Shown here in pieces: positions 616 to 50,191 of a stretch of DNA of 64,000 nucleotides. Under the pieces are notes generated by a model that was given only the letters and a program-made list of their open reading frames with translations, did no database searches and was not told where the DNA came from. Location of the stretch: positions 2,080,001 through 2,144,000 of the forward strand of contig CAXXHB010000003.1 of NCBI GenBank assembly GCA_963664815.2, written 5' to 3'. Made by a program: the position numbers and the translations under genes. Every line of letters starts with the position of its first letter. Positions within the stretch are counted from its first letter, which is position 1. This DNA is from Spirochaetota bacterium (GTDB lineage Bacteria > Spirochaetota > UBA4802 > UBA5550).

Positions 616-1370
616 ACAATCAAGCAACAATAGAGAAGATGCAGGAGATGCGTCTTCATGGAATGCTCAGCTCATTCAGGGAAACATTCTCTACCGGGAT
701 GCAGAATAAATTTACTGCTGATGAAATGGTTGCTCATCTCATCGATGCTGAATGGGACGAGAGGTATAACAGAAAATTTAACACTCTGCTTAAAAGTGCG
801 GACTTCAGATACAAGTCAAGTATCGAAGAGATCGACTATAAGCCGTCAAGAAAAATTGACAGGAATATGATACTCCGATTTTCGACCTGCGACTGGATCA
901 TAAAAGGAGAGAGTATTATCATTACCGGATCAACAGGTGCAGGTAAAAGCTTCATGGCCTGTGCACTCGGTCACAAAGCATGTGTTCTTCGTTATCATGT
1001 TGGATACTATAACTGTATGAAATTGTTTTCACATTTGAAGTATTGTAAAGTTGATGGATCATATTTTAAAGAGATGAATAAAATTAAAAAACAGGATTTG
1101 ATAATTCTTGATGACTTCGGATTGAAGCCCTTTGATTCTGACTCGCGATTAATGCTGCTTGAAATGCTTGAAGATCGCCACGGCACCAGATCAATAATTA
1201 TTAGCTCTCAAATCCCCACAGATATGTGGTTTGATCTTATTGGAGATGCGACTATTGCGGATGCTATCTGTGACAGACTTCTTCATACATCACATAAAAT
1301 TGACATCGGTGGGCCCTCAATGAGAAAGGAAAAAGCAAAAAATTCTGGACGAAACCTGCCACCTGAATAA
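612..1370 (+). CDS. istB: IS21 helper AAA+ ATPase
   Basis: Walker A GSTGAGKS, Walker B LIILDDFG, ADAICDRL motif. Confidence 0.95.
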   Translation: MNNQATIEKMQEMRLHGMLSSFRETFSTGMQNKFTADEMVAHLIDAEWDERYNRKFNTLLKSADFRYKSSIEEIDYKPSRKIDRNMILRFSTCDWIIKGESIIITGSTGAGKSFMACALGHKACVLRYHVGYYNCMKLFSHLKYCKVDGSYFKEMNKIKKQDLIILDDFGLKPFDSDSRLMLLEMLEDRHGTRSIIISSQIPTDMWFDLIGDATIADAICDRLLHTSHKIDIGGPSMRKEKAKNSGRNLPPE

Positions 1371-1588
1371 TGGTGATTTAGAAAATGGAAATGGATTAAA
1401 AATGGTAAACTTAAAACCGGAATAGGTGGCAGGTTTCACCGGAATACATATACTAAAAATGTAAAGCCTGCACCTTCCAATTTAAACTGGTTAAATTAGA
1501 ATTGACATACTTATTTTAATTATCAAAAATTATACATAGATCAATAAAACTAAATCCTGATCAGAAATTTTTAAGGAGAAATTATTTA

Positions 1589-2149
1589 ATGAAAAATTTA
1601 AAAACAATTCTATTCATCCTCACATTAACTGCTGTAACAGCCTGTTCATCGCGATATAATTATATCTTAGACCCGACTCCTCTGGTTAAAGGCAAAACTG
1701 CTTACTCTGTGAAGAGTGTGAAAGTAACAATAGTTCAATCCGGTATTAAACTGAATAAAGATGCAGAGGTTAAAGGCTATTTGTCTGAAGCGGATATGGG
1801 AAAAGCATTTCAGGAAAAAATTATCAATGAATTGAAAAATAATAATATTCTTGAAGCCGGCAAAAATGCCGGGTACAATTTATCTATCACTATTAATTAT
1901 AAAAGAAGTTTTGCCGTTAATTCAAATCAGGTAATACACCCGGATTTTTCATACGAATGGGTAATAGAAAAAGATAATAAATCTATCGCTTCATTCAAAA
2001 GCGGAGCTATGACAATGTCCGGATTAAGTCTTGCGGCGGAATTTGCAAGGACTGGCCGTTCAGATATTAATCCACAGGCTGAATTTGAATATATTGAAAA
2101 GATATCAAAAACTATTGTCGAAAAAGACATTATTGATATCGGAAAATAG
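1589..2149 (+). CDS. Hypothetical lipoprotein
   Basis: RBS AAGGAG. Signal peptide with lipobox-like VTAC. Confidence 0.75.
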   Translation: MKNLKTILFILTLTAVTACSSRYNYILDPTPLVKGKTAYSVKSVKVTIVQSGIKLNKDAEVKGYLSEADMGKAFQEKIINELKNNNILEAGKNAGYNLSITINYKRSFAVNSNQVIHPDFSYEWVIEKDNKSIASFKSGAMTMSGLSLAAEFARTGRSDINPQAEFEYIEKISKTIVEKDIIDIGK

Positions 2150-2173
2150 TTTTATAATTATCATTTATAAATA

Positions 2174-2209
2174 GCCGAAAGCCCGCATTGGATAATACGG
2201 GCTTTCGGT
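2174..2209. terminator. Stem-loop, probable terminator
   Basis: GCCGAAAGCCCG...CGGGCTTTCGGT stem 25 bp after the lipoprotein stop. Confidence 0.7.
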
Positions 2210-2235
2210 ATACTCTCTCTCCTTTGAACCACATC

Positions 2236-2336
2236 GCATAATTGACGTTAAGCTTTCGCTTCGCACATCTCCGGACTCAACGTATCAGAAATTTTGTCCA
2301 GCTCTCCGGCGCCGTCGCTTAACTATGCAATTATTG
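2236..2336. repeat. Spacer element C (attC-like hairpin), copy 1
   Basis: GCATAAT-GTTAAGC ... CCGG...CCGG ... GCTTAAC-ATTATTG imperfect palindrome, homologous to five other copies. Confidence 0.7.
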
Positions 2337-2470
2337 TATGTATTGTATTGTGATATTGTTACATCTCTGTTAAGTCCCTCTGCAGATGTTTCCGGTTTGG
2401 TTATTGTTATTGTTCCTGCTCCTATTGTGGCCAGGTTTGTCTGTCTGTTGTCTGTGTAGCCGTAGTTTAA
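2336..2470 (-). pseudogene. cdiA trunk fragment (LNYGYTDNRQ...SQYNTY)
   Basis: Near-identical to the cdiA trunk at ~20070-20203. Confidence 0.85.
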
Positions 2471-2703
2471 GGGCGTGACACTGACGACCTTAAATATCAT
2501 TTGGCGTAATGTTTTACGCCCCTAAATGTTGTTAATATTTTTTATTATATAATAAATGATTATTTCACATTCGTCAGTTCCGGGCTTTCCGTTTGTATAA
2601 AACGGCCAATCTGTTGATTTCTATTTACTCTTTATTGATTGCCGTTTTATATCGCTGCAATCCCTCACGCGGTGTGCTTTTATATTGTTGGTTTTCAAGG
2701 AAC
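2468..2703. repeat. Spacer element A (inverted REP-like pair + long hairpin), copy 1
   Basis: GGGCGTGACA...TGTTTTACGCCC followed by CGGGCTTTCCG-TATAAAACGGC...GCCGTTTTATA-CGCTGCAATCCCTCACGCG. Confidence 0.85.
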
Positions 2704-2817
2704 TTAAGTCATTAGTTGATAAATTAAAAAAGTACTACTCACAAATTATATTTTCTATAGTTGGACTTTAGCGAAATTCCGTGACTTGTTGTGTTAATTG
2801 ATTCACATTAAAACTTT

Positions 2818-3129
2818 TTATTTTACTTTTATCAAGTTAATTATAGCACTAATCGCCAAATAAGAAAAAAATATTATTAACAACAATGCCAATATGTCTT
2901 CATAATTAGTAAACTTTCGAGAACCCAACATTAAAATTATAATAATTGCAAATAATTTATTATACCATTTTGTTTCAACAATAGGAGCTTTTTCAATTTT
3001 TTCAATTTTTAACAAATCACCTTTTTTTTTTGCATTAAAAAATTTTATAAAAAACAAAATAAGTGTAATAATCATCGAAAAAAATAAAACTACCTCTGAT
3101 ACTAACAATATATTTTTTAAACTAATCAT
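2818..3129 (-). CDS. Putative membrane immunity protein (identical to 30024-30335)
   Basis: Three hydrophobic segments, overlaps the stop of a toxin-tip fragment, same translation as 30024-30335. Confidence 0.75.
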   Translation of the reverse strand: MISLKNILLVSEVVLFFSMIITLILFFIKFFNAKKKGDLLKIEKIEKAPIVETKWYNKLFAIIIILMLGSRKFTNYEDILALLLIIFFSYLAISAIINLIKVK

Positions 3130-3400
3130 TTAACTTGTATCTTTGCACTGACTCAATATACTTTTGCTGTTCAGCTTGTATCAGTGCTTCCGTTCCTTTT
3201 ACAATTTTATAATTATAAACTGGTGTACTAGTAATTGGTTTACTTAATGTAGCTGAAAAATTTGATGTTGAACCACCAGTTTGTATCGAAAAATATTTAT
3301 CTCCAAAATCAATTTCTCCAGGAATATGGTTATATGTAGCACTTAACGAACCAGGATTTCCATTCCCATATCCGAATCCAACAACTCCAGTAACCCACGC
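3122..3400 (-). pseudogene. 3' fragment of the Gly-rich toxin tip at 30328-30606
   Basis: Nucleotide match at offset 27206. Confidence 0.85.
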
Positions 3401-3520
3401 GCCCTATGCTATATGGGGAACTTTCTGTGAAAGTGAACTGAGCTATTGTATGTATCAACATCTGCCTGTACACAATCACATGAAAAAGATTTTTACGGAT
3501 ATCTGGAGAAAGAGATATTT
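3401..3520. repeat. Tail of element C plus degenerate start of element B
   Basis: TATGCTATATGGGGAACTTTCTGTGAAAGTGAACTGA matches the flank after 36832. AACATCTGCCTGTACACAATC at 3457 matches element B. Confidence 0.6.
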
Positions 3521-3664
3521 TTTTTAATATATCAACGAATTTTTTTATACTAACATTTTAATTCCGAATTTATACTCGTATAATCATTAATCAGCGTTCC
3601 TTAATTGGTACACTTCTGTTTAATTTACATTGTTTGTGGCACCGTAAGTAGCAGTATATAATGT

Positions 3665-3976
3665 TTATAATAACTTTCGACTATTTATAATATCATCTAT
3701 AACATTTATACTCCAAAATTTTACTTCTTCAAATGTTGCTTTTAATTCATTATGATGGTAAATAAAAAATTCAATTACATCAAACAAATTATCCTCATAA
3801 TAAAAATCTAACACTACTTCAGAAGTATAACTATTATCATCTGAGTATGTTCTTTTTATTTCTATATTGCCAAATGTCAGACCTACTCTTTTAATTTCTT
3901 CTTTTTTCTGTATCAAGATCTGATTTAGCAAATATATATATTCATTTTCTATATTTAAAATATCTTTATCTTTCAT
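3665..3976 (-). CDS. Putative cytoplasmic immunity protein
   Basis: Small acidic AT-rich ORF overlapping the toxin-tip stop. Confidence 0.7.
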   Translation of the reverse strand: MKDKDILNIENEYIYLLNQILIQKKEEIKRVGLTFGNIEIKRTYSDDNSYTSEVVLDFYYEDNLFDVIEFFIYHHNELKATFEEVKFWSINVIDDIINSRKLL

Positions 3977-4679
3977 CTTTTTTATCTATTTTCGGATATT
4001 CAACCCATTCATCTGGAAAACTTTTTACTGTTCCATATTTTCCAACATAATCTTGTTGTTGATGAATAATTTCACCATCTTTTTCTACTTGGTGAGTTTT
4101 AGAAATAGTAGTACCATTTTCTTTCTCTATTATATGTTTCGAAGTTGCACCATCACCACCTAAACTTTTTCTAACTATTTCTTCTTTTGTGATTATACTT
4201 TCGCTGTTTTTAACAACATCCTCAGTCCCATTAATAGCTTTTTCGATTCCAGCTTTAGCTTCCCTTCCTACTAATCCACTGGATGCAGTTGTCACATCTC
4301 CTAAACTTATATGTTCAGGTATATTGTCAGCTGCTTCCTTAAACACTACACCTAAAGCTAAATTGAATGCCTGCTTCAACGTACTATCAGAATTTCCGGC
4401 ATTTGCAATCGATTCAATCGAACTTTCAGTTAATTTGTCTTTAACTATACGTAATAGTTTTGCATCAGGAGAATTGGAATCAGTATTATCAATCCCCATT
4501 GTATTAACTGTTCCCGAAAGATTGACAACATTATTTGCTATCTCATTTCCCTGCTGTATCTCCGCATCTCTTAAACTTGAATTTACCGCCAGTTGCTTAG
4601 CATAGGCTATCTCCGCCCTTTCCTCCGCAAACCTAACTTTAATTGCATGTGCCGCATCAGGATCAATTTCTTTAAGCAC
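3966..4679 (-). pseudogene. Orphan CdiA-CT, unknown toxin tip (GGDGATSKH...THQVEKDGEIIHQQQD)
   Basis: N-part shares DPDAAHAI...NIPEHISLGD with other modules; unique C-terminus; no secretion domain. Confidence 0.75.
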
Positions 4680-33303: not shown

Positions 33304-33834
33304 TTATGTATCAAACTCTATATTAACTTTTGGGGCATTTTTCATAACAAATTTTTTTTCTTTATATAATTTATAAGCTTCATCACCAATATAAAAATAA
33401 AAGCTGCTATTTTTACTTTGCTTTAAATTTTTTTTAATCCATTTCTGATATTCATTATATTGCTTATTAAGCCATTCAGGTTTTTTTATTAACTCTCCTT
33501 TTTCATCATAATATTTTGTTTGAAACCAAATTCGACCATTCCATAATTCGTTATCATTAACTATCTCACATCGTGAAAACTCGATAACCTCTGACAATGT
33601 ATCATCCACAAAACCGTTTTTCTTTATAAATATTTTCGAATCAGTTTTCATGATAAAAATTTTTCCGATTGTTGTTGAATCTAGTCTTTTACCTGAAATA
33701 TAACTTACTAGTTCCCCTATTTCATTTACTTTATTTCCACTTTTATCTACTATCACATCATTGTTCTTCTTAATAAATTCAATAAAAGATAGTTCATCAT
33801 TGGCTGTCATAAAAAAACTAATTTGCTTTCCCAT
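33304..33834 (-). CDS. Putative cytoplasmic immunity protein
   Basis: Starts 11 bp after the nuclease-tip stop; no signal peptide. Confidence 0.75.
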   Translation of the reverse strand: MGKQISFFMTANDELSFIEFIKKNNDVIVDKSGNKVNEIGELVSYISGKRLDSTTIGKIFIMKTDSKIFIKKNGFVDDTLSEVIEFSRCEIVNDNELWNGRIWFQTKYYDEKGELIKKPEWLNKQYNEYQKWIKKNLKQSKNSSFYFYIGDEAYKLYKEKKFVMKNAPKVNIEFDT

Positions 33835-33845
33835 ATTCAGTATCC

Positions 33846-36728
33846 TTATTTATTATATGGATAGAATTTAACTCCATATCCAGCATTTTCAAAATCCTGA
33901 ATAGCTTTTGCTTCTCTTGAAACGGGAAGTCCACCTTTTGTTTCTTTCCCCACTTGAATGATAAATTTTTCCCCTGTTTCCTCATTTTTTACTAAAGCAT
34001 CCCCCCATCTTGATTCTTTAAACCCACCGGGTGTTTCTACTTTATATTCTGTTTTAACAGTATATCCATTCTTTTCAAAATCTGTTACAACTTCAGAAAT
34101 TTTCTCTTGATGAAGTGGACCACCTGCTTTTCCATATGGATTAGGAACTGCTTTAGCTACATCATCCGCTTTCCCTGTTACACCCAAAACATTCTCAGCA
34201 CTTGTAATACCGGAAACTGATAATCCTTTATTTATTAAAGCATTCTCAATCAATTCACCTGCAATGAAACCAGCCACTTCAGCAGGGTGTTCGGTTACCT
34301 TCTCTTTTACATTTTCTGCTACATTGCCTAAATAGTTTCCTGCACCCTGTTCACTTATATTATCTGCTAAACCTGTTACAGTCTCAACTCTTTTATTAAA
34401 TTCATAAGCACTTCCCAGTGCAGGATTTATCAGGTATAATCCACCTGTTGTTAATGATTCTTTTATTTCATCCTTAGTCGGTAATGAAGATAAAAGTCCT
34501 TCACCAAATTCACCTGCGTAATACGATAAATCCTTACCTTTTTGTCCTTCTAAATATTCATTAGTCTTCGATCTGTCCAGTTCTTTAAAGTCGGCAAGAT
34601 ACTTAGCCTCTTTTGTTTTCTCATTCGCCGCCCTTTCCTTCGCGAACTTAACCTCAATTGCATGTGCCGCATCAGGGTCAATCTCTTTAAGCAGCGCTAT
34701 CTTGGCATTTATTACAACCGCAGTATCTTTCGTATATGTATCAAGAATATCCTTTGACAGACTATTTGATAGCTCCTGCTTTACAGTTTTGTAAGCATTC
34801 AGCATATCCATCTGCTCATCGGGGCTCAGTGCTTCTCCGACAAGGTTTTTTGATCCGTAATATGCAAGTGTCTCTGATGCACTTACAGGTTTCCCGTTTT
34901 CAACCTTCTTCTCGTATTCATCCATTGTCTGGAATGATGATACATTTTTATCTTCTGTATAGTGGTCAAATTTTAACAGGTTCTCAGTCTTCTCAATTGT
35001 TGTTTCAATTTCCTGATCTACCTTCTTCGCTGTTTTCTCTGCTTCAGTTAATCCACTTTCCAATGCACCCACTGTATCATATAAAGTCTTTTCCCTGTCT
35101 TTTATCAGTTCTACTGTTGCGGTATCTACCGTAACTCCGCCTTTAAGTCCTCCGCTGTATGTATTGTATTGTGATATTGTTACATCTCTGTTAAGTCCCT
35201 CTGCCGATGTTTCCGGTTTGGTTATTGTTATTGTTCCTGCTCCTATTGTGGCCAGGTTTGTCTGTCTGTTGTCTGTGTAGCCGTAGTTTAAGCTTGAACT
35301 GTACGTATTTTCTGTTGGTTTGAAGCTGCCGCTTGCGCTTCCACCTGCATTGAAAGATACGTCCTTGTCCTTTATGTTGCTGAACTCAAGGCTTCCGGTT
35401 GTAAGTGTCAGGTTATCTGTTGTTGATGCTATTACTGCCCCTCTTAGGGTTGTCTTGTCTTCAACGTCTACGTTTACTGTCCCGCCGGTTAGGGATGTCT
35501 GTTCTGTTACCCAGCTTTTCTTCCCCGTGGAGAAGTTTGCGTTTACTCCGGCATTTCCCGATACGTTTTCGCCTGTTACACTTACTCCCCCGCTTGCGCC
35601 TATGGTCTGCGAGCTGTTTTTACTTTTATCCTGCAGTGATTGTACCACAAGGGAACCATTTACATCAAGGTCAAGCTCGTTTTTCGCCTTTACCACTCCG
35701 CCGATTACTGTTGTGTCTTCGCTGCTCTTTATTTTTATGTTGTTTCCGCTTAAATGTGCGTTGGTATATGTTTTGCTTTCGCTATCTGTCTCCGTGCTGT
35801 CTGCTGATGCATTAACTCCAATTGCTCCCGATGTTCCGAAACTTACCTTCATGTTGGCATGTTTCTTATCTTCGCTGCTGCTCTCTCTGTTCTCCGCCGC
35901 GCTTATCTCCACATTCTCTGCGTCAAGGGTTATATCCTCACCGGCTGCCACGCTGCTCCCCTTTACCTCCGCTTTGCTCCCCGCTGTTACAGTAAAGCTC
36001 CCTCCGGTTTTTATTGTCGATGCCTTTGCAGTTGTGCTTTCCGATGTCGATTTTGTTTTTGTGGCGTCTATTTCAAACTGGGCATCTCCGCTGAAGCCGA
36101 ATGCCTCTGCAGATCCCGCCGCCCCCGCTGCGCTTTGCAGCAGCGCCGCTGTCTTTGCTACCACGTTCTCCCCGCAGAGCGCTATATTCGCAATGTAAAA
36201 GGCCTCCTGCTCTCTTATTGAATCCAGATCATCCTGGTCTATAAGGTTGTTTTTATGGTCATCTTCTGCTTTCTTCAGGCTCTCCCTGTATTTCTCATAA
36301 TCATTCTTTGCCTTTACAACTGCTTCCTTTGCCTCTACCAGAGCCTTTGTTGCGTATGCTACATCCGTTGCGGCATTCTTGCCCCCAAACGAAAATTCCA
36401 CGCTTCCGTGAGTCTCTTCTGCTGTATGGCTTGTCTTCTCTTCTGTTGTCTTTATGCTTACGTTTTCTGCCGCCGTAAGGGTTACATCTCCACCGGTATT
36501 TATCTCAGATCCCGCTACTGTTATATTCTTTCCGCTGTTTACCGTAAGATCTTCCGATACATTAAGTTTTGATGAGCTCTGTGTCTCCCTGTCTGTCCTC
36601 TCCTTTACGCTGTCGTAGCTCCCCCCTGCAAGCGTTACTGACGCTCTCCCCTGGTCATAGTCAAAGGCGTTTTTGGGGTTGGTAAACAGGTCCATGTTTA
36701 TCCCCATTGTGGTCTTTTCAATATTCAT
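33846..36728 (-). pseudogene. Long orphan CdiA with PD-(D/E)XK-type nuclease tip
   Basis: PNPYGKAGGPLHQ...TE...RWGD...IQVGK...RE..AI.D; trunk identical to cdiA from EKTTMG. Confidence 0.8.
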
Positions 36729-36951: not shown

Positions 36952-37266
36952 TTATTTAATAAGAATCATACTGATTAGTATTCTGAAATTAACAAAAACA
37001 AAACCCAATAAAAGTAAGATCTTCAATTCATCTTCATAATTCCAACCTATTTTATTTGTTATCCATATTACTATCAATATTGTGACTATAAAATATACCA
37101 CATAATTTGATGAATTATTAAAAACACTCTTAAGTTTATTAACTTTATCCCAATCATTGTTTTTTTGTGCATTATACCTTTTTATAAAAAACATTACTAT
37201 ATACATTACAGTTGTAGCAATTATTAATAAAAATTCCAAATTAATTATACTATGCGATCTAAGCAT
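36952..37266 (-). CDS. Putative 3-TM immunity protein, paralogue of 30024-30335
   Basis: Shared FFIK..NA.K..D..K and NYED.L..LLL patterns; RBS GGAG. Confidence 0.75.
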   Translation of the reverse strand: MLRSHSIINLEFLLIIATTVMYIVMFFIKRYNAQKNNDWDKVNKLKSVFNNSSNYVVYFIVTILIVIWITNKIGWNYEDELKILLLLGFVFVNFRILISMILIK

Positions 37267-37355: not shown

Positions 37356-38762
37356 TTAATCTTCGTTGACTCCGGATGTACCTTTTTTTAATCTATTTTT
37401 TACAATCGAATCAATAAATTGTTTTTGTTCAGATTTAATTAACTCCCCAGTACCATTTACACTTTTATCCACAACTTGTGTGCCTGTAGTGATTGTAGGT
37501 GTACCAGCAGTATATGTTAATGATGCTTCAGATGTCGTGATCCCTCCTCTAATTCCGATTTTCTGTGTTCCAAAATCTACTTCGACAATGACATTTTCTA
37601 AGCTTAAAGAAACGGTTCCGAAAGGATTTCCATCTCCATAACTTACGCCTGCTGTTATTGAACCTATTGTTTTTGGACCTATTCCAACTGTAGGATTAAG
37701 TTTACCTGAAATAGTTGCATCTTTATTAACAGTAAATTCGCCCGTACCACTTAAAGTGAGACCACCTCCTCGTCCATATACGTCTTCTTCTGCAAGAACT
37801 GTAGTAGAAACAACAACGTCTCCCTTCGGTAAAAATTCAATTACTTTGCCTAAGGTAGTTTTTTCTATAGAAGTCTGTACATCGGTTATCAGCCTATCTC
37901 CTTCTTTTAATTTATATGGATATTCAAGCTGAGGATTGTTCTTTAAGAATTTTTCTTTTTCTGTATCAAAATCGGTATTTATACCGAGTGCAACTTTCCT
38001 TTTTACATCTGTTTCAATAAAATCATCAACCAATGTATCACCTTTATCTACACGTTCAGTTATAACATTAACGGTACCTTTTTTGTCATATTCTTCAAAG
38101 GTTTTAGTATAAAGTAATGGTTTAGAACGTGCTACTACTCCACCATCTTCACTTGTATCAAGTTCTTTCGCCTTTTCGCTACCCTTAACCAGTGTATCTG
38201 ATTCAGCATTCGCATTATTCCAGTTAATTACAGCATCATGATTTGTAGTTGTTGAAGCTGTTTCTGAAAACCTGTTCCATAAATTTCCCGCCTGTTCTCC
38301 ACGTGAAGATGCAAGTGTAAGCTGCTGTCCTGCATCAAGGTCCAGCCCATTAGTGGTGTTATCCTTCCTCTGGGCTTCCCAGAAGAGTGATGTAATAATA
38401 TCTCCACCCTTTGATATATCTGTTCCTTCGGTATTCAGATATGTTTCATTATTATTCTGGTCATATGCTGCTGCATATCCATTCATCGCGTTATCTGTTT
38501 TATCTCCCTGATACAGATTTACATGAGATATTTTATCATCCTTAACTCCATCGCTGCTCTGAACAGTTTCAGAAACCTTATTAACCGCTTCTTTCAATGA
38601 TGCCGCATCTTTATCAAGTGCATTATCGAGTTTTTCAGCTAAAGCCTTGTTCTCTGCCAGGGCTGCTATTGTTAATACATCCTTACGGGCATTAATTACA
38701 GCCTCGAGTGTACCCGCGAATCCAAGACCTTCTTTAGCTTTGGTAGTTTCTGTTGCCTCTTC
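37356..38762 (-). pseudogene. Orphan type-B module with LysM-like + Gly-rich tip (ORF 37356-38597)
   Basis: Diverged paralogue of the 30328 tip (VDKGDTL...NPQL..P..LKEGDRL). Confidence 0.7.
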
Positions 38763-39044: not shown

Positions 39045-39332
39045 TTAAAAAAGCTTAAGAATTTTTCCCGTGGCGATCTCTTTCCCTTCCCAAAGTGTTA
39101 TAAGCTTTCCTCGTTTTAATTTTGGTAATACTAAATCTGGATTCATGAATTTTACAGGAATCTCATATATTCCACCCAATTGAAGCTCTCGACCTTCAAG
39201 TATCAAACGACAATCGAATCCGCTCCCGTCAACGAATAGAGGACACCCATAGACTTGACCTACTACAGAAGTTTTTCGTCCTCCTTCAGCAGTTGTTTTA
39301 AAACGAACCTCAATAATAACATCTGGCTTCAT
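39045..39332 (-). CDS. cdiI: Cognate immunity of primary CdiA; stand-alone EF-Tu domain III-like protein
   Basis: Starts 7 bp after the cdiA stop. KP...EV.....EGGR.T...Y...EG.E...G...V....P...G......EG....G.I.K aligns with the EF-Tu C-terminal barrel. Confidence 0.8.
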   Translation of the reverse strand: MKPDVIIEVRFKTTAEGGRKTSVVGQVYGCPLFVDGSGFDCRLILEGRELQLGGIYEIPVKFMNPDLVLPKLKRGKLITLWEGKEIATGKILKLF

Positions 39333-39339
39333 TTAAATT

Positions 39340-42300
39340 TTACCTCGATGTAAGTGGCATGTAATCAAGTACAGTTGGCACAAGCTTTTCTAAACGTTCA
39401 TCTGGTATTACCCAAGCAGATATACCACGATCAACTATTGCTGGCGTGAGCCCTTCAAAAATAGTTTTTGGGACATCAGTTTTTATTAATGTATAAGGAG
39501 CATCGCCAAATCCATTTACAGCTTGTTTAGCATATGATGCTGCATCCTCTGCATATGTTGAAAAATATTTACCTTCTGCTGATCCTAAATTTCTAAGAAC
39601 TCCACTTGATTGAATATCAGCTAATTCATTCGGACCGACAGCACGATATAATGTTTGAACTTTCTCAACAATTTTTCCTGCAGCATTTGCAATATCATCA
39701 CCATGTTCAAAAGCTTCTTCACCTATGTTTTCAACTACTTTTCCTGTCCCTCCTATTGGTATAATAGGGAGAATAATAGCAGCGGCAGCAAAGCCTTTTT
39801 CTGTATCTGTTGCTTCCTCACCATACTGATTTTTACCTGTAGCTAAAGTGTTAGCACCTATCACAGCTCCAAATAAAACATCATCTACACCACCGCAAAT
39901 TCCCTGAGCACTGACCCCTTCATTTGCGAACATCTTTGTCTCTTTTGCTATCTCATTTCCCTGCTGTATCTCCGCATCTCTTAAACCTGAATTTACCGCC
40001 AGCTGCTTAGCATAGGCTATCTCCGCCCTTTCCTCCGCAAACCTAACTTTAATTGCATGTGCCGCATCAGGATCAAGCTTTTCAAGCAGCGCTATCTTGG
40101 CATTTATTACCAGTGCACCATCTTTTGTATATGTGTCAAGAATATCCTGCTTCAGATCATTTGCTACTTCTTTGGTTCTTGTCTGAATCGCTTTATTCTC
40201 ATCCTGCTGCTCTTCAGGACTCAGTTTTTCTCCGACAGCTTTTTTTAACTCATAATAATCAAGCTTCTCCTGCGCACTTACAGGTTTCCCGTTTTCAACC
40301 TTCTTCTCGTATTCATCCATTGTCTGGTATGATGATACATTTTTATCTTCTGTATAGTGGTCAAATTTTAACAGGTTCTCAGTCTTCTCAATTGTTGTTT
40401 CAATTTCCTGATCCACCTTTTTCGCTGTTTTCTCTGCTTCAGTTAATCCACTTTCCAATGCATCTACTGTATTATATAAGGTCTTTTCCCTGTCTTTTAT
40501 CAGTTCTACTGTTGCGGTATCTACCGTAACTCCGCCTTTAAGCCCTCCACTGTATGTATTGTATTGTGATATTGTTACATCTCTGTTCAGTCCCTCTGCC
40601 GATGTTTCCGGTTTGGTTATTGTTATTGTTCCTGCTCCTATTGTGGCCAGGTTTGTCTGTCTGTTGTCTGTGTAGCCGTAGTTTAAGCTTGAACTGTACG
40701 TATTTTCTGTTGGTTTGAAGCTGCCGCTTGCGCTTCCACCTGCATTGAAAGATACGTCCTTGTCCTTTATGTTGCTGAACTCAAGGCTTCCGGTTGTAAG
40801 TGTCAGGTTATCTGTTGTTGATGCTATTACTGCCCCTCTTAGGGTTGTCTTGTCTTCAACGTCTACGTTTACTGTCCCGCCGGTTAGGGATGTCTGTTCT
40901 GTTACCCAGCTTTTCTTCCCCGTGGAGAAGTTTGCGTTTACTCCGGCATTTCCCGATACGTTTTCGCCTGTTACACTTACTCCCCCGCTTGCGCCTATGG
41001 TCTGCGAGCTGTTTTTACTTTTATCCTGCAGTGATTGTACCACAAGGGAACCATTTACATCAAGGTCAAGCTCGTTTTTCGCCTTTACCACTCCGCCGAT
41101 TACTGTTGTGTCTTCGCTGCTCTTTATTTTTATGTTGTTTCCGCTTAAATGTGCGTTGGTATATGTTTTGCTTTCGCTATCTGTCTCCGTGCTGTCTGCT
41201 GATGCATTAACTCCAATTGCTCCCGATGTTCCGAAACTTACCTTCATGTTGGCATGTTTCTTATCTTCGCTGCTGCTCTCTCTGTTCTCCGCCGCGCTTA
41301 TCTCCACATTCTCTGCGTCCAGGGTTATATCCTCACCGGCTGCCACGCTGCTCCCCTTTACCTCCGCTTTGCTCCCCGCTGTTACGGTAAAGCTCCCTCC
41401 GGTTTTTATTGTCGATGCCTTTGCAGTTGTGCTTTCCGATGTCGATTTTGTTTTTGTGGCGTCTATTTCAAACTGGGCATCTCCGCTGAAGCCGAATGCC
41501 TCTGCAGATCCCGCCGCCCCCGCTGCGCTTTGCAGCAGCGCCGCTGTCTTTGCAACCACGTTCTCCCCGCAGAGCGCTATATTCGCAATGTAAAAGGCCT
41601 CCTGCTCTCTTATTGAATCCAGATCATCCTGGTCTATAAGGTTGTTTTTATGGTCATCTTCCGCTTTCTTCAGGCTCTCCCTGTATTTCTCATAATCATT
41701 CTTTGCCTTTACAACTGCTTCCTTTGCCTCTACCAGAGCCTTTGTTGCGTATGCCACATCCGTTGCGGCATTCTTGCCCCCAAACGAAAATTCCACGCTT
41801 CCGTGAGTCTCTTCTGCTGTATGGCTTGTCTTCTCTTCTGTTGTCTTTATGCTTACGTTTTCTGCCGCCGTAAGGGTTACATCTCCACCGGTATTTATCT
41901 CAGATCCCGCTACTGTTATATTCTTTCCGCTGTTTACCGTAAGGTCTTCCGATACATTAAGTTTTGATGAGCTCTGTGTCTCCCTGTCTGTCCTCTCCTT
42001 TACGCTGTCGTAGCTCCCCCCTGCAAGCGTTACAGAAGCTCTCCCCTGGTCATAGTCAAAGGCGTTTTTGGGGTTGGTAAACAGGTCCATGTTTATCCCC
42101 ATTGTGGTCTTTTCATGGATGCTGTATTCGTAGCTTGTCTCTTTTGCGCTTGTTTCTGTAAAACTGCCGGTTGTGTCAAATTCCGCAATGCCGGCGTTTA
42201 TGGCGCTCCCCTCCATCAGAAAATCGCCGCCTGTGGATGCTTTAAGTTTTCCGGCAGTTATTGCAGATCCCGCGGCTGTTGTTGCTCCGTTTCCGGCTGC

Positions 42301-48745: not shown

Positions 48746-50191
48746 CTACATCCGGCAGGTTTTACGTATATCAGTATCTGTCTTCCAGCCGAGTTTTGCG
48801 GCTTTTTTAAAATCACTGCAGGCTTCGTCTTTCAGATCCATCTTTATCCGGGCATTACCCCGGTCATAATATGTTCTCGGGTCATCCGGCTTAAGTTCAA
48901 TAGACCTGCTATAATCGGCAACTGCCCCTTCAAAATCCTTCAGTCCGGCTTTTACAAGCCCCCTGTTCCCGTAAGCCTCCGCGCTGCCGGGCACAAGTTC
49001 AATGATCCTGCTGTAATCGGCTATTGCGCCGTTATAATCTTTTATTCTGTATTTAAGAAATCCCCTTGCAAAATACGATTTTTCATAGTCCCCTTTAAGT
49101 TCAATGGCCCTGTTAAAGTCTGACAAAGCTCCCTCGAAATCATTGATCTTTTCCTTTATATTTCCCCTGTTCAGATAACAGAAAATATCCCCCGGTTCCA
49201 GCTCCGAAACTTTACTGTAATCGGCTATGGCGCCGGCATAGTCCTTTGTCTTATCCCTTGCATCACCCCTGTTGTAATATGCGCCTGTATAACGGGGCTT
49301 CAGATCAATGGCAATACTGTAATCCGCTATTGCCTCGATATATTTTTCAATGGTATAGTTTATATAACCCCTGCGGTTGTATGCTTCGGCGCTGTCAGGT
49401 TTTAATCTTATTACCGCGTTGAAATCGCTTATTGCACCACGGTAGTCAGCAAGCGCACTTTTTGCGTCTCCCCTGTTGAAATATGCATCAGAATAATCAG
49501 GTTTCAGATTGACAGCTGTTGTGCAGTCGGCAAGGGTATTTTTATACCCTCCAAGCATGTACCATGCATACCCCCGGTTGTTGAATGCCTCGGCATATGA
49601 ATTATTAATGCTTATTGCCCTGCCGAAATCATTAATTGCAGCCTTGAAGCTCTTTAAAATTATTTTAACAAGACCCCTTTTGTTATACCCTTCTGCAGAG
49701 CGGGGATCAAGTTCAATGGCTTTTGTGTAATCGGCTGCAGCTTCATTATACTTATAAAGCTTAAGGTATGCATCACCCCGGCATATGTATAATTCAGAAT
49801 CATCAGGCATAAAACCGGCAGTTATAGTAAAGTCTGCAACGGCGCCGTTATAATCGTCGTTTGAAAATTCAACACTGCCCCTGTTTCTGAAAGCATCAGT
49901 AAAATCGGGTTTAAGCTCAACAGCCTTTGTGAAGCATTCAATACTCTCTCTGTATTTTTTTTCCTCTTTCAGGAGAATACCCTTCGCAAACCAGCCGTAT
50001 TCAGAACCGGGTGATATTTTTACTATATCTTTAAAAACTGGTAACCTTTCTGCAGCGTTCTGAATACTGACAGATTTTTCATACAGCTCTTTTGCCCTTA
50101 GCCTTTCATATTCACTCCCTCTCACGCATGAGACCAGAACGAGCGAGGCAGCGGCTGCCATACAGATAATCATGGTTATAGTTTTTTTCAT
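48746..50191 (-). CDS. Tetratricopeptide-repeat lipoprotein
   Basis: Many AY.NRG...AIADY..AI.L.P repeats; lipobox-like LVSC; ends 16 bp before cdiB. Confidence 0.9.
   Translation of the reverse strand: MKKTITMIICMAAAASLVLVSCVRGSEYERLRAKELYEKSVSIQNAAERLPVFKDIVKISPGSEYGWFAKGILLKEEKKYRESIECFTKAVELKPDFTDAFRNRGSVEFSNDDYNGAVADFTITAGFMPDDSELYICRGDAYLKLYKYNEAAADYTKAIELDPRSAEGYNKRGLVKIILKSFKAAINDFGRAISINNSYAEAFNNRGYAWYMLGGYKNTLADCTTAVNLKPDYSDAYFNRGDAKSALADYRGAISDFNAVIRLKPDSAEAYNRRGYINYTIEKYIEAIADYSIAIDLKPRYTGAYYNRGDARDKTKDYAGAIADYSKVSELEPGDIFCYLNRGNIKEKINDFEGALSDFNRAIELKGDYEKSYFARGFLKYRIKDYNGAIADYSRIIELVPGSAEAYGNRGLVKAGLKDFEGAVADYSRSIELKPDDPRTYYDRGNARIKMDLKDEACSDFKKAAKLGWKTDTDIRKTCRM

Follow-up and report, generated by a model that had tools for sequence, protein, structure and literature searches.

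In a 64,000-nucleotide stretch of a Spirochaetota genome (assembly GCA_963664815.2, contig CAXXHB010000003.1, positions 2,080,001 to 2,144,000 of the forward strand; the whole stretch is called the window here, and positions are counted from its first base), a long cdiA-like toxin gene is followed by a small gene for a protein of 95 amino acids (aa). This small protein, which occupies the position of an immunity gene, is homologous to domain III of the elongation factor EF-Tu but stands alone. The toxin tip, made up of the final 110 residues of the CdiA-like protein, is supported by its model as an ADP-ribosyltransferase (ART) fold, and a confident complex model places it on domain III of EF-Tu itself. 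Since the toxin is modelled on the same EF-Tu domain that the small protein resembles, the target may have been copied to make the antidote, which would then act as a decoy. On balance we lean slightly towards a minimal ART toxin that docks on the face of domain III that binds tRNA and transfer-messenger RNA (tmRNA), where it modifies or blocks EF-Tu, and that is neutralised by a decoy domain III derived from tuf.

The 95-aa protein and its pairing with the toxin tip

The homology to EF-Tu is apparent at the level of structure. An AlphaFold2 model of the 95-aa protein, made with 39 family members in the alignment, has a mean predicted local distance difference test score (pLDDT) of 93.5. When this model is used as a Foldseek query, all rows listed are EF-Tu or complexes that contain EF-Tu (E about 1e-5, TMq 0.78-0.82). 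The same is true of VIA-align, where 50 of the 50 rows listed contain EF-Tu, with Z-scores of 14.2-15.2 and a root-mean-square deviation (rmsd) of 1.6-2.0 Å over 88-89 of the 95 residues. In the E. coli EF-Tu entries the superimposed range is chain residues 301-392, which corresponds to domain III, and the identity is 18-21%. Profile comparisons with hhalign lead to the same domain. A profile of 213 immunity-family sequences aligns from one end to the other with a profile of EF-Tu domain III (probability 96.7%, P 3.4e-10, 84 columns), as compared to P 0.077 for domain II and P 0.26 for domain I. Here, the domain III profile was made from the EF-Tu sequences of 26 genomes from the phylum of the source genome, and the two control domains come from the same alignment. 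A smaller profile with 39 immunity sequences gives a probability of 48% and P 1.8e-4 against domain III. With one EF-Tu sequence in place of a profile, hhalign reaches only E 0.018. A sequence-only reading of this DNA had proposed the homology by aligning two stretches of the 95-aa open reading frame (ORF), EVRFKTTAEGGRKT and WEGKEIATGKILKL, by eye with the C-terminal barrel of EF-Tu. Both stretches are present in the ORF, hhalign aligns the same stretches as the motifs EGGR.T and EG...G.V, and the proposal has been borne out.

Family-level and pairwise sequence searches give no such link. Pfam and NCBIfam yield no family match for either the 95-aa ORF or the tip, and the Pfam model of the domain in question (GTP_EFTU_D3, PF03143) does not match the 95-aa ORF at E values up to 10. 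In a six-frame search of the bacterium's own genome, PF03143 finds tuf only and not the 95-aa ORF. BLASTP of the 95-aa protein against the EF-Tu of the same genome gives no match, and searches of the PDB, using phmmer with the 95-aa protein (P0001) and hmmsearch with the family profile, return only chance matches that have no link to EF-Tu. One neighbour cluster in the Atlas carries PF03143 on 13% of its members, which is a lead only. The 95-aa protein therefore shares with EF-Tu domain III the six-stranded barrel, the order of its elements and the EGGR.T and EG...G.V motifs, whereas it differs in standing alone, without a GTPase domain or a domain II, in lying below the reach of the Pfam model, and in having conserved residues of its own family (C30, C41, D40, R42 and W81) that are absent in EF-Tu.

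The family to which the protein belongs is large, with 457 representative clusters at E<=1e-3. The best 150 of these 457 are 56-406 aa long without any length filter, mostly 95-130 aa, and 97 of 100 candidate relatives of the 95-aa protein are near its length. The genome itself has a single copy of the gene. Among the 213 aligned family members, two cysteines stand out, C30 (conserved in 95%) and C41 (94%), at positions where EF-Tu has Pro and Gly, respectively. In the model they lie in a hairpin of two strands (27-34 and 37-44) and are predicted to face each other across the strands; C30 is also at a position equivalent to the predicted EF-Tu interface described below. The module is also part of some larger proteins. 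In P0215 (406 aa) and P0241 (231 aa) it follows a common N-terminal domain of ~130 aa with a CPWCG motif, in P0207 (273 aa) it comes after hydrophobic segments, and in P0220 (205 aa) it is followed by a C-terminal extension.

The pairing between tip and immunity gene is near-obligate. When metagenome contigs were searched for the tip by profile, 66 loci were found, some of them near-duplicates. In 55 of the 56 loci that could be assessed, meaning that the tip end is complete and at least 320 nt of downstream sequence are available, the tip is followed on the same strand, at a distance of 9-38 nt, by the start of an immunity homologue; the one locus that departs from this is L106. The remaining 10 of the 66 loci are truncated, and the start of the immunity gene is visible in 2 of these. 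Searching genomes in the other direction, with the immunity profile, gave 17 loci, 7 of which have a tip immediately upstream. Another one (L016) has a degraded remnant. The rest of the 17 are mostly found in metagenome-assembled genomes of Chlamydiota, where the gene is one of several small genes arrayed downstream of Rhs toxins whose tips are different.

Several of these loci have peculiarities. In the Chlamydiota arrays (L006, L008, L014 at about 1100-4300, L005, L009, L010 and L018) the same neighbours of 93 aa and 129 aa recur, and the immunity homologues there look like orphan immunity genes in poly-immunity islands. A degraded pair is found in L016 (3261-4234), where the last ~25 residues of the tip are fused to an unrelated N-terminal part and the immunity gene breaks off after ~34 residues. 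One protein, P0106, was considered as a toxin-immunity fusion and rejected, because the gene call reads from the tip through a scrambled tail into the immunity frame.

The toxin tip and its predicted site on EF-Tu

The tip contains the motifs TLYRAV, EL.DI and KYFST, from which the sequence-only reading had derived an ART-like domain. By fold this stood, but by sequence it did not. The tip model has a pLDDT of 89.5. None of the Foldseek matches reaches E<=0.001. TreTu comes first (7zhm_A, E 1.7e-3), ahead of Tpt1/KptA, CC0527, diphtheria toxin, exotoxin A and RhsP2. VIA-align, which is independent of Foldseek and was run against 48,161 representative chains, gives its best Z-score, 8.1, for RhsP2 (rmsd 2.7 Å, 88 residues), while diphtheria toxin has Z 7.8 and TreTu Z 7.7 (rmsd 2.9 Å, 89 residues); over two VIA-align runs, diphtheria toxin has Z 7.8-8.0. 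Of the top 50 rows, at least 40 belong to ARTs or to ART-fold enzymes that use NAD, and six could not be assigned from their titles (2aua, 4eyy, 6yhn, 6yhk, 1s21 and 6kyf). NADases with an ART fold, namely Tne2, RES and MbcT, are also among the fold matches. A split beta-sheet ART fold is thus supported for the modelled tip. Its family is unnamed and also occurs on Rhs carriers: there are 57 longer relatives with 53-78% identity, all of them C-termini of Rhs proteins or of CdiA/DUF637/filamentous-haemagglutinin proteins, from many lineages. A feature score of 0.85 between the tip and the TreTu_C cluster in the Atlas is a lead only.

Residues that are invariant in the tip family include Y9, R10, D19, N28, E33, G34, K35, Y36, F37, Y47, D57, Y60 and D81. 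The invariant R10 is on strand 1, K35-Y36-F37 is on strand 2 and is followed by S or T, and the invariant D81 comes before strand 5. In a by-eye comparison, R10 and E16 are spaced like R6 and E12, the essential residues of TreTu; in L011 the acidic residue is one position off.

Where the tip would act was modelled with a complex of the tip (8-row alignment), nicotinamide adenine dinucleotide (NAD) and the full-length EF-Tu of the same genome (25-row alignment), with NAD left unscored. The interface score ipSAE is 0.81, 0.82 and 0.81, as compared to 0.00 for the best of three controls. The tip-EF-Tu run, with its own alignments and NAD included, differs from the calibration of the score, in which 58 of 80 solved complexes but also 2 of 110 mismatched pairs came up to this mark. 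At least 98% of the contacts are common to the runs, and the partner pLDDT is at least 88. EF-Tu is predicted to be contacted almost entirely in domain III (313, 329-331, 333-340, 346-349, 351, 372, 374-375 and 388-392), with two further positions, 258 and 298, in domain II. On the side of the tip, the contacts (30-34, 36, 47, 50-51, 54-55, 76-82 and 86-88) coincide with the most conserved patch of the family and include the invariant residues E33, G34, Y36, Y47, V80 and D81. The invariant cleft of the tip is thereby modelled on the GGRH/E pocket of domain III, and this domain was picked with all three domains of EF-Tu offered. R329, H330 and E389 of this EF-Tu correspond to R318, H319 and E378 in E. 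coli, an offset of 11. The model is confident that the tip binds EF-Tu domain III, its score being the model's own confidence, and it lends support to the earlier claim that the toxin targets or requires EF-Tu.

The pocket in question has been described before. G317, R318, H319 and E378 form a strictly conserved pocket of domain III beside nucleotide 52 of the tRNA, and R318 is essential, as R318A and R318N fail to support viability (10.1101/2023.06.09.544387). In the immunity family (213 members), the equivalent residues are retained as G18 (0.97), R19 (0.96) and E82 (0.90). Positions equivalent to the predicted EF-Tu interface are moderately more conserved in this family than the rest (2.67 versus 2.25 bits, permutation P 0.045), and at several of them family-specific residues replace those of EF-Tu (C30, P31, D40, R42 and W81). 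Covariation between tip and immunity protein, calculated as mutual information with average product correction over 43 unique pairs, is slightly higher in the interface-by-interface block (Mann-Whitney P 0.012), but none of the top 50 pairs falls in that block, the top pairs being gappy terminal columns, and we give the result no weight.

These observations suggest the following mechanism. The tip would enter the target cell and clamp its conserved cleft onto domain III of EF-Tu, at the Gly-Arg-His/Glu pocket (G317, R318, H319 and E378 in E. coli) on the face that binds the arm of tRNA and tmRNA. It would most likely ADP-ribosylate EF-Tu at this pocket, or at least block the pocket, and translation would stop. 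The producer would be protected by the 95-aa protein, an exapted free-standing domain III that has kept the GGR...E pocket and that may occupy the toxin cleft as a high-affinity decoy or pseudo-substrate. NAD-dependent catalysis, the residue that is modified, and the binding of the immunity protein via the equivalent surface are the parts of this scheme that we infer. In a more far-reaching version, duplication of part of tuf would have given rise to the immunity protein, which would serve as a pseudo-substrate decoy made from the target, a form of immunity that is not known to have been described for polymorphic toxins. The toxin would be the first ART directed at the essential Arg318 pocket on the tRNA/tmRNA face of domain III, and the pair, with Rhs as well as CdiA proteins as carriers, would be distributed over many phyla. 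We consider the chances of this version to be evenly balanced.

A number of points weigh against this mechanism. The case for it is wholly computational, and the score of the complex is the model's own estimate of its confidence. That the immunity protein would use the surface it shares with EF-Tu is our own deduction. At the 23 interface-equivalent positions, the immunity consensus has the EF-Tu residue in 5 cases, as compared to 13 of 61 elsewhere (Fisher P 0.59), which does not speak for mimicry at the level of single residues. TreTu, the one characterised interbacterial ART that acts on EF-Tu, has its modification site at D21 in domain I, and TriTu, the immunity protein that blocks it, is unrelated and of the lid type (PMC9825190). 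The Z-scores of 7-8 for the ART fold are middling and do not separate several clades that differ in their substrates, among them that of RhsP2, which modifies RNA; for this reason the fold of the tip is supported, but its clade and its substrate are not. Although R10 is on strand 1, a canonical ART triad (R-S-E, H-Y-E or H-H-h on strands 1, 2 and 5) could not be assigned, as the later motifs are unclear and W87 varies between W, Y, I and M. No ART family is connected with the tip by sequence searches, apart from a trace in the form of 2 of 8 members that match ART-PolyVal at E 0.1. In the PDB, phmmer and hmmsearch with the tip and with the tip profiles A2 and A3 give chance or Rhs-core matches only, and A2 and A3 retrieve no TreTu chain at E values up to 10. 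Pfam likewise has no match for the tip, TreTu family included, with the presence of PF24691 among the models searched not confirmed.

One alternative is that EF-Tu serves as a cofactor. Here, the tip would bind domain III for activation or delivery and would ADP-ribosylate something else, for example tRNA or rRNA, and the immunity protein would still be a domain III decoy. There are precedents for toxins that depend on EF-Tu and leave it unmodified, among them CdiA-CT NC101, which binds domain 2 (PMC5737660), CdiA-CT EC869, which requires Tu/Ts (PMC9071432), and SRLase1, which requires EF-Tu to cut the sarcin-ricin loop (SRLase1 preprint). In addition, RhsP2, which ties as the best VIA-align match of the tip (Z 8.1), ADP-ribosylates structured RNAs (PMC13617354), and the complex model speaks to binding only and not to transfer of the ADP-ribose. 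However, the predicted footprint covers the face of domain III that holds the tRNA arm, so that toxin and aminoacyl-tRNA could hardly be on EF-Tu together. It is also the most conserved cleft residues of the tip that touch EF-Tu, and not a separate docking surface, as would be expected of a substrate. We regard a cofactor role as improbable.

It is similarly unlikely, in our estimate, that the barrel is a mere scaffold, in which case the 95-aa protein would act as a common lid over the NAD cleft and its ancestry would be uninformative about the target. The target would be another protein, RNA or NAD itself through hydrolysis, and the docking on EF-Tu would be a by-product of its distant likeness to the true partner. 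Known immunity to ARTs does work by occlusion: TriTu forms a beta-lid (PMC9825190), and RhsFI has been modelled with its C-terminal helix in the entrance of the catalytic cavity (PMC13617354). The lack of excess EF-Tu identity at the predicted interface, given above, and the NADases among the fold matches fit this explanation as well, and close cousins of a true partner can pass complex scoring too, as seen for 10 of 12 colicin pairs. In the same calibration, however, 0 of 84 pairs pass when the partner offered is only distantly related to the true one, and EF-Tu domain III is a distant relative, being only 18-21% identical to the immunity protein. What the immunity family retains is precisely the G-G-R and E residues of the pocket, which are strictly conserved and essential in EF-Tu, and the model settled on domain III unprompted when it was given EF-Tu in full length.

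EF-Tu is among the most abundant proteins of the cell, and it is therefore doubtful that a delivered toxin could titrate it. Together with R10 and the following acidic residue (E16), which are spaced as in TreTu, this makes it very improbable that the tip is a catalytically dead ART fold that only sequesters EF-Tu or blocks its tRNA/tmRNA face, even though no canonical triad could be assigned and the footprint extends over the pocket through which tmRNA binding can be blocked by a small molecule (10.1101/2023.06.09.544387). A toxin that acts on EF-Tu at domain III, with an antidote derived from that same domain, is the reading that we prefer.

Layout of the locus and neighbouring genes

The coordinates of the genes and domains are given in Table 1. 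The cdiA-like gene encodes a two-partner secretion (TPS) domain and filamentous haemagglutinin repeats, and a gene for a TpsB transporter lies upstream; the locus is therefore a polymorphic toxin locus of the CdiB/CdiA two-partner-secretion type, with the small ORF in the immunity position. The locus has the elements of a contact-dependent inhibition (CDI) system, from TpsB, the TPS domain and the haemagglutinin repeats to the variable C-terminal tip and the gene directly downstream of it. Only 7 nt separate the end of the cdiA-like ORF from the start of the 95-aa ORF, and both are on the minus strand.

Table 1. Features of the toxin locus and its surroundings (window coordinates; gene ranges of the first two rows include the stop codon)
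Feature	Position	Strand	Evidence
Immunity gene, 95 aa, free-standing EF-Tu domain III homologue	39045..39332	-	ORF, model, fold and profile matches
Toxin tip, final 110 residues of CdiA, predicted small ART-fold domain of ~105 aa	39340..39672	-	Model, fold matches
Pre-toxin linker between filamentous haemagglutinin repeats and tip	39673..40020	-	Weak PT-TG match
cdiA-like TpsA gene, 2303 aa	39340..46251	-	TPS secretion domain E 3.2e-43, Fil_haemagg_2 E 5.5e-28
cdiB-like TpsB transporter gene (ShlB/FhaC-type), 610 aa	46897..48729	-	ShlB E 3.7e-82, also POTRA_2 and POTRA_3
413-aa ORF	37356-38597	-	
104-aa hydrophobic ORF	36952-37266	-	Weak membrane-protein matches, all below cut-off
960-aa ORF, repeat of main cdiA with different tip	33846-36728	-	
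176-aa ORF	33304-33834	-	
Gene for 481-aa protein with tetratricopeptide repeats	48746-50191	-	

The linker between the repeats and the tip has a weak match to PT-TG (residues 53-97 of the final 226 aa of CdiA, E 0.021, 15.2 bits as compared to a cut-off of 23.5 bits). The VENN pre-toxin motif was also looked for, and PT-VENN gives no match in these final 226 aa; it matches weakly in one of the tip homologues, P0293. In three Rhs homologues (P0265, P0274 and P0290), the first ~80 positions of the Pfam model Ntox10 match the linker just before the tip, with E values from 2.4e-7 to 2.3e-5. Ntox10 was considered as the identity of the tip and was rejected, since in these three proteins the matches fall upstream of the tip, in the linker. 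Judged from these alignments, that segment of the Ntox10 model may represent a shared pre-toxin linker and not a toxin.

Further along the minus strand, the 960-aa ORF is for a long stretch a near residue-for-residue repeat of the main cdiA gene, and then ends in a different C-terminal tip; the 176-aa ORF comes next. Pfam has no matches for the tip of the 960-aa ORF or for the 176-aa ORF. A gapless repeat search reports a sole pair of 300 nt that is 90% identical (34806-35105 and 40201-40500). The two ORFs look like an orphan cdiA-CT/immunity cassette that is available for tip swapping. Between this cassette and the immunity gene are the 413-aa ORF, which has no Pfam matches, and after it the 104-aa hydrophobic ORF; these may be a second orphan toxin-immunity pair. 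The gene for the protein with tetratricopeptide repeats is located directly upstream of the TpsB gene.

Comparison with known systems

There is precedent for toxin-immunity pairs of the CDI and Rhs types, for tips with an ART fold, and for toxins that target EF-Tu or use it as a cofactor (PMC9825190, PMC5737660, PMC9071432, SRLase1 preprint). The closest system is TreTu/TriTu, the C-terminal toxin of the main Rhs protein of Salmonella Typhimurium and its immunity protein (PDB 7ZHL and 7ZHM; PMC9825190). Here too, a small tip with an ART fold (113 aa in TreTu) is found on a polymorphic toxin, an Arg on strand 1 is followed by a Glu six residues on, a small immunity gene lies just downstream, and EF-Tu is the target, in our case a putative one that comes from modelling. 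In contrast, there is no detectable sequence relation between the two tips, TreTu modifies D21 in the P-loop of domain I while the tip described here is modelled on domain III, and the 95-aa protein is an EF-Tu-like domain III barrel where TriTu has two helices and a flat sheet of five strands (PMC9825190). The carriers also differ, TreTu being found on an Rhs protein and the tip in the window on CdiA.

The EF-Tu of the target cell is also bound by the tips of other polymorphic toxins, namely CdiA-CT NC101, CdiA-CT EC869, SRLase1 and Serratia Rhs2. These are RNases or a DNase and not ART folds, and NC101 binds domain 2. SRLase1 and Serratia Rhs2 were considered as members of the same family and rejected, being an RNase and a DNase, respectively. 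No EF-Tu-related immunity protein is mentioned for any of the four in the texts examined, and the SRLase1 preprint contains none of the terms 'mimic', 'domain 3', 'domain III' and 'beta-barrel'. In the portion of the main text of PMC3482391 that was searched, 'EF-Tu' and 'elongation factor' are absent. We found no report in the literature of an immunity protein that is homologous to a domain of the toxin's own target, nor of an ART aimed at domain III, with the caveat that supplements may list such a family. There is a real chance that the principle of target-derived immunity is new.

The face of domain III that is predicted as the site of attack has been hit by other means. Doc, a Fic-type kinase, phosphorylates EF-Tu at T382 on the same face; it is not an ART, and no decoy is involved. 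KKL-55 binds at the region of G317, R318, H319 and E378, which is thereby marked as an exposed and vulnerable site of EF-Tu; KKL-55 is a small molecule, with no ART and no decoy (10.1101/2023.06.09.544387). The Gly-Arg-His/Glu pocket would be indicated as a natural attack point where a synthetic inhibitor already binds.

The immunity proteins of polymorphic toxins are usually unrelated proteins that act as active-site plugs. If the 95-aa protein has indeed been recruited from the target, this would be a new route to self-protection, and the target of a toxin could then be read from the ancestry of its immunity gene. In addition, two large unnamed families have been defined, one with 457 representative clusters of immunity proteins, and the other with dozens of tips on Rhs and CdiA carriers.

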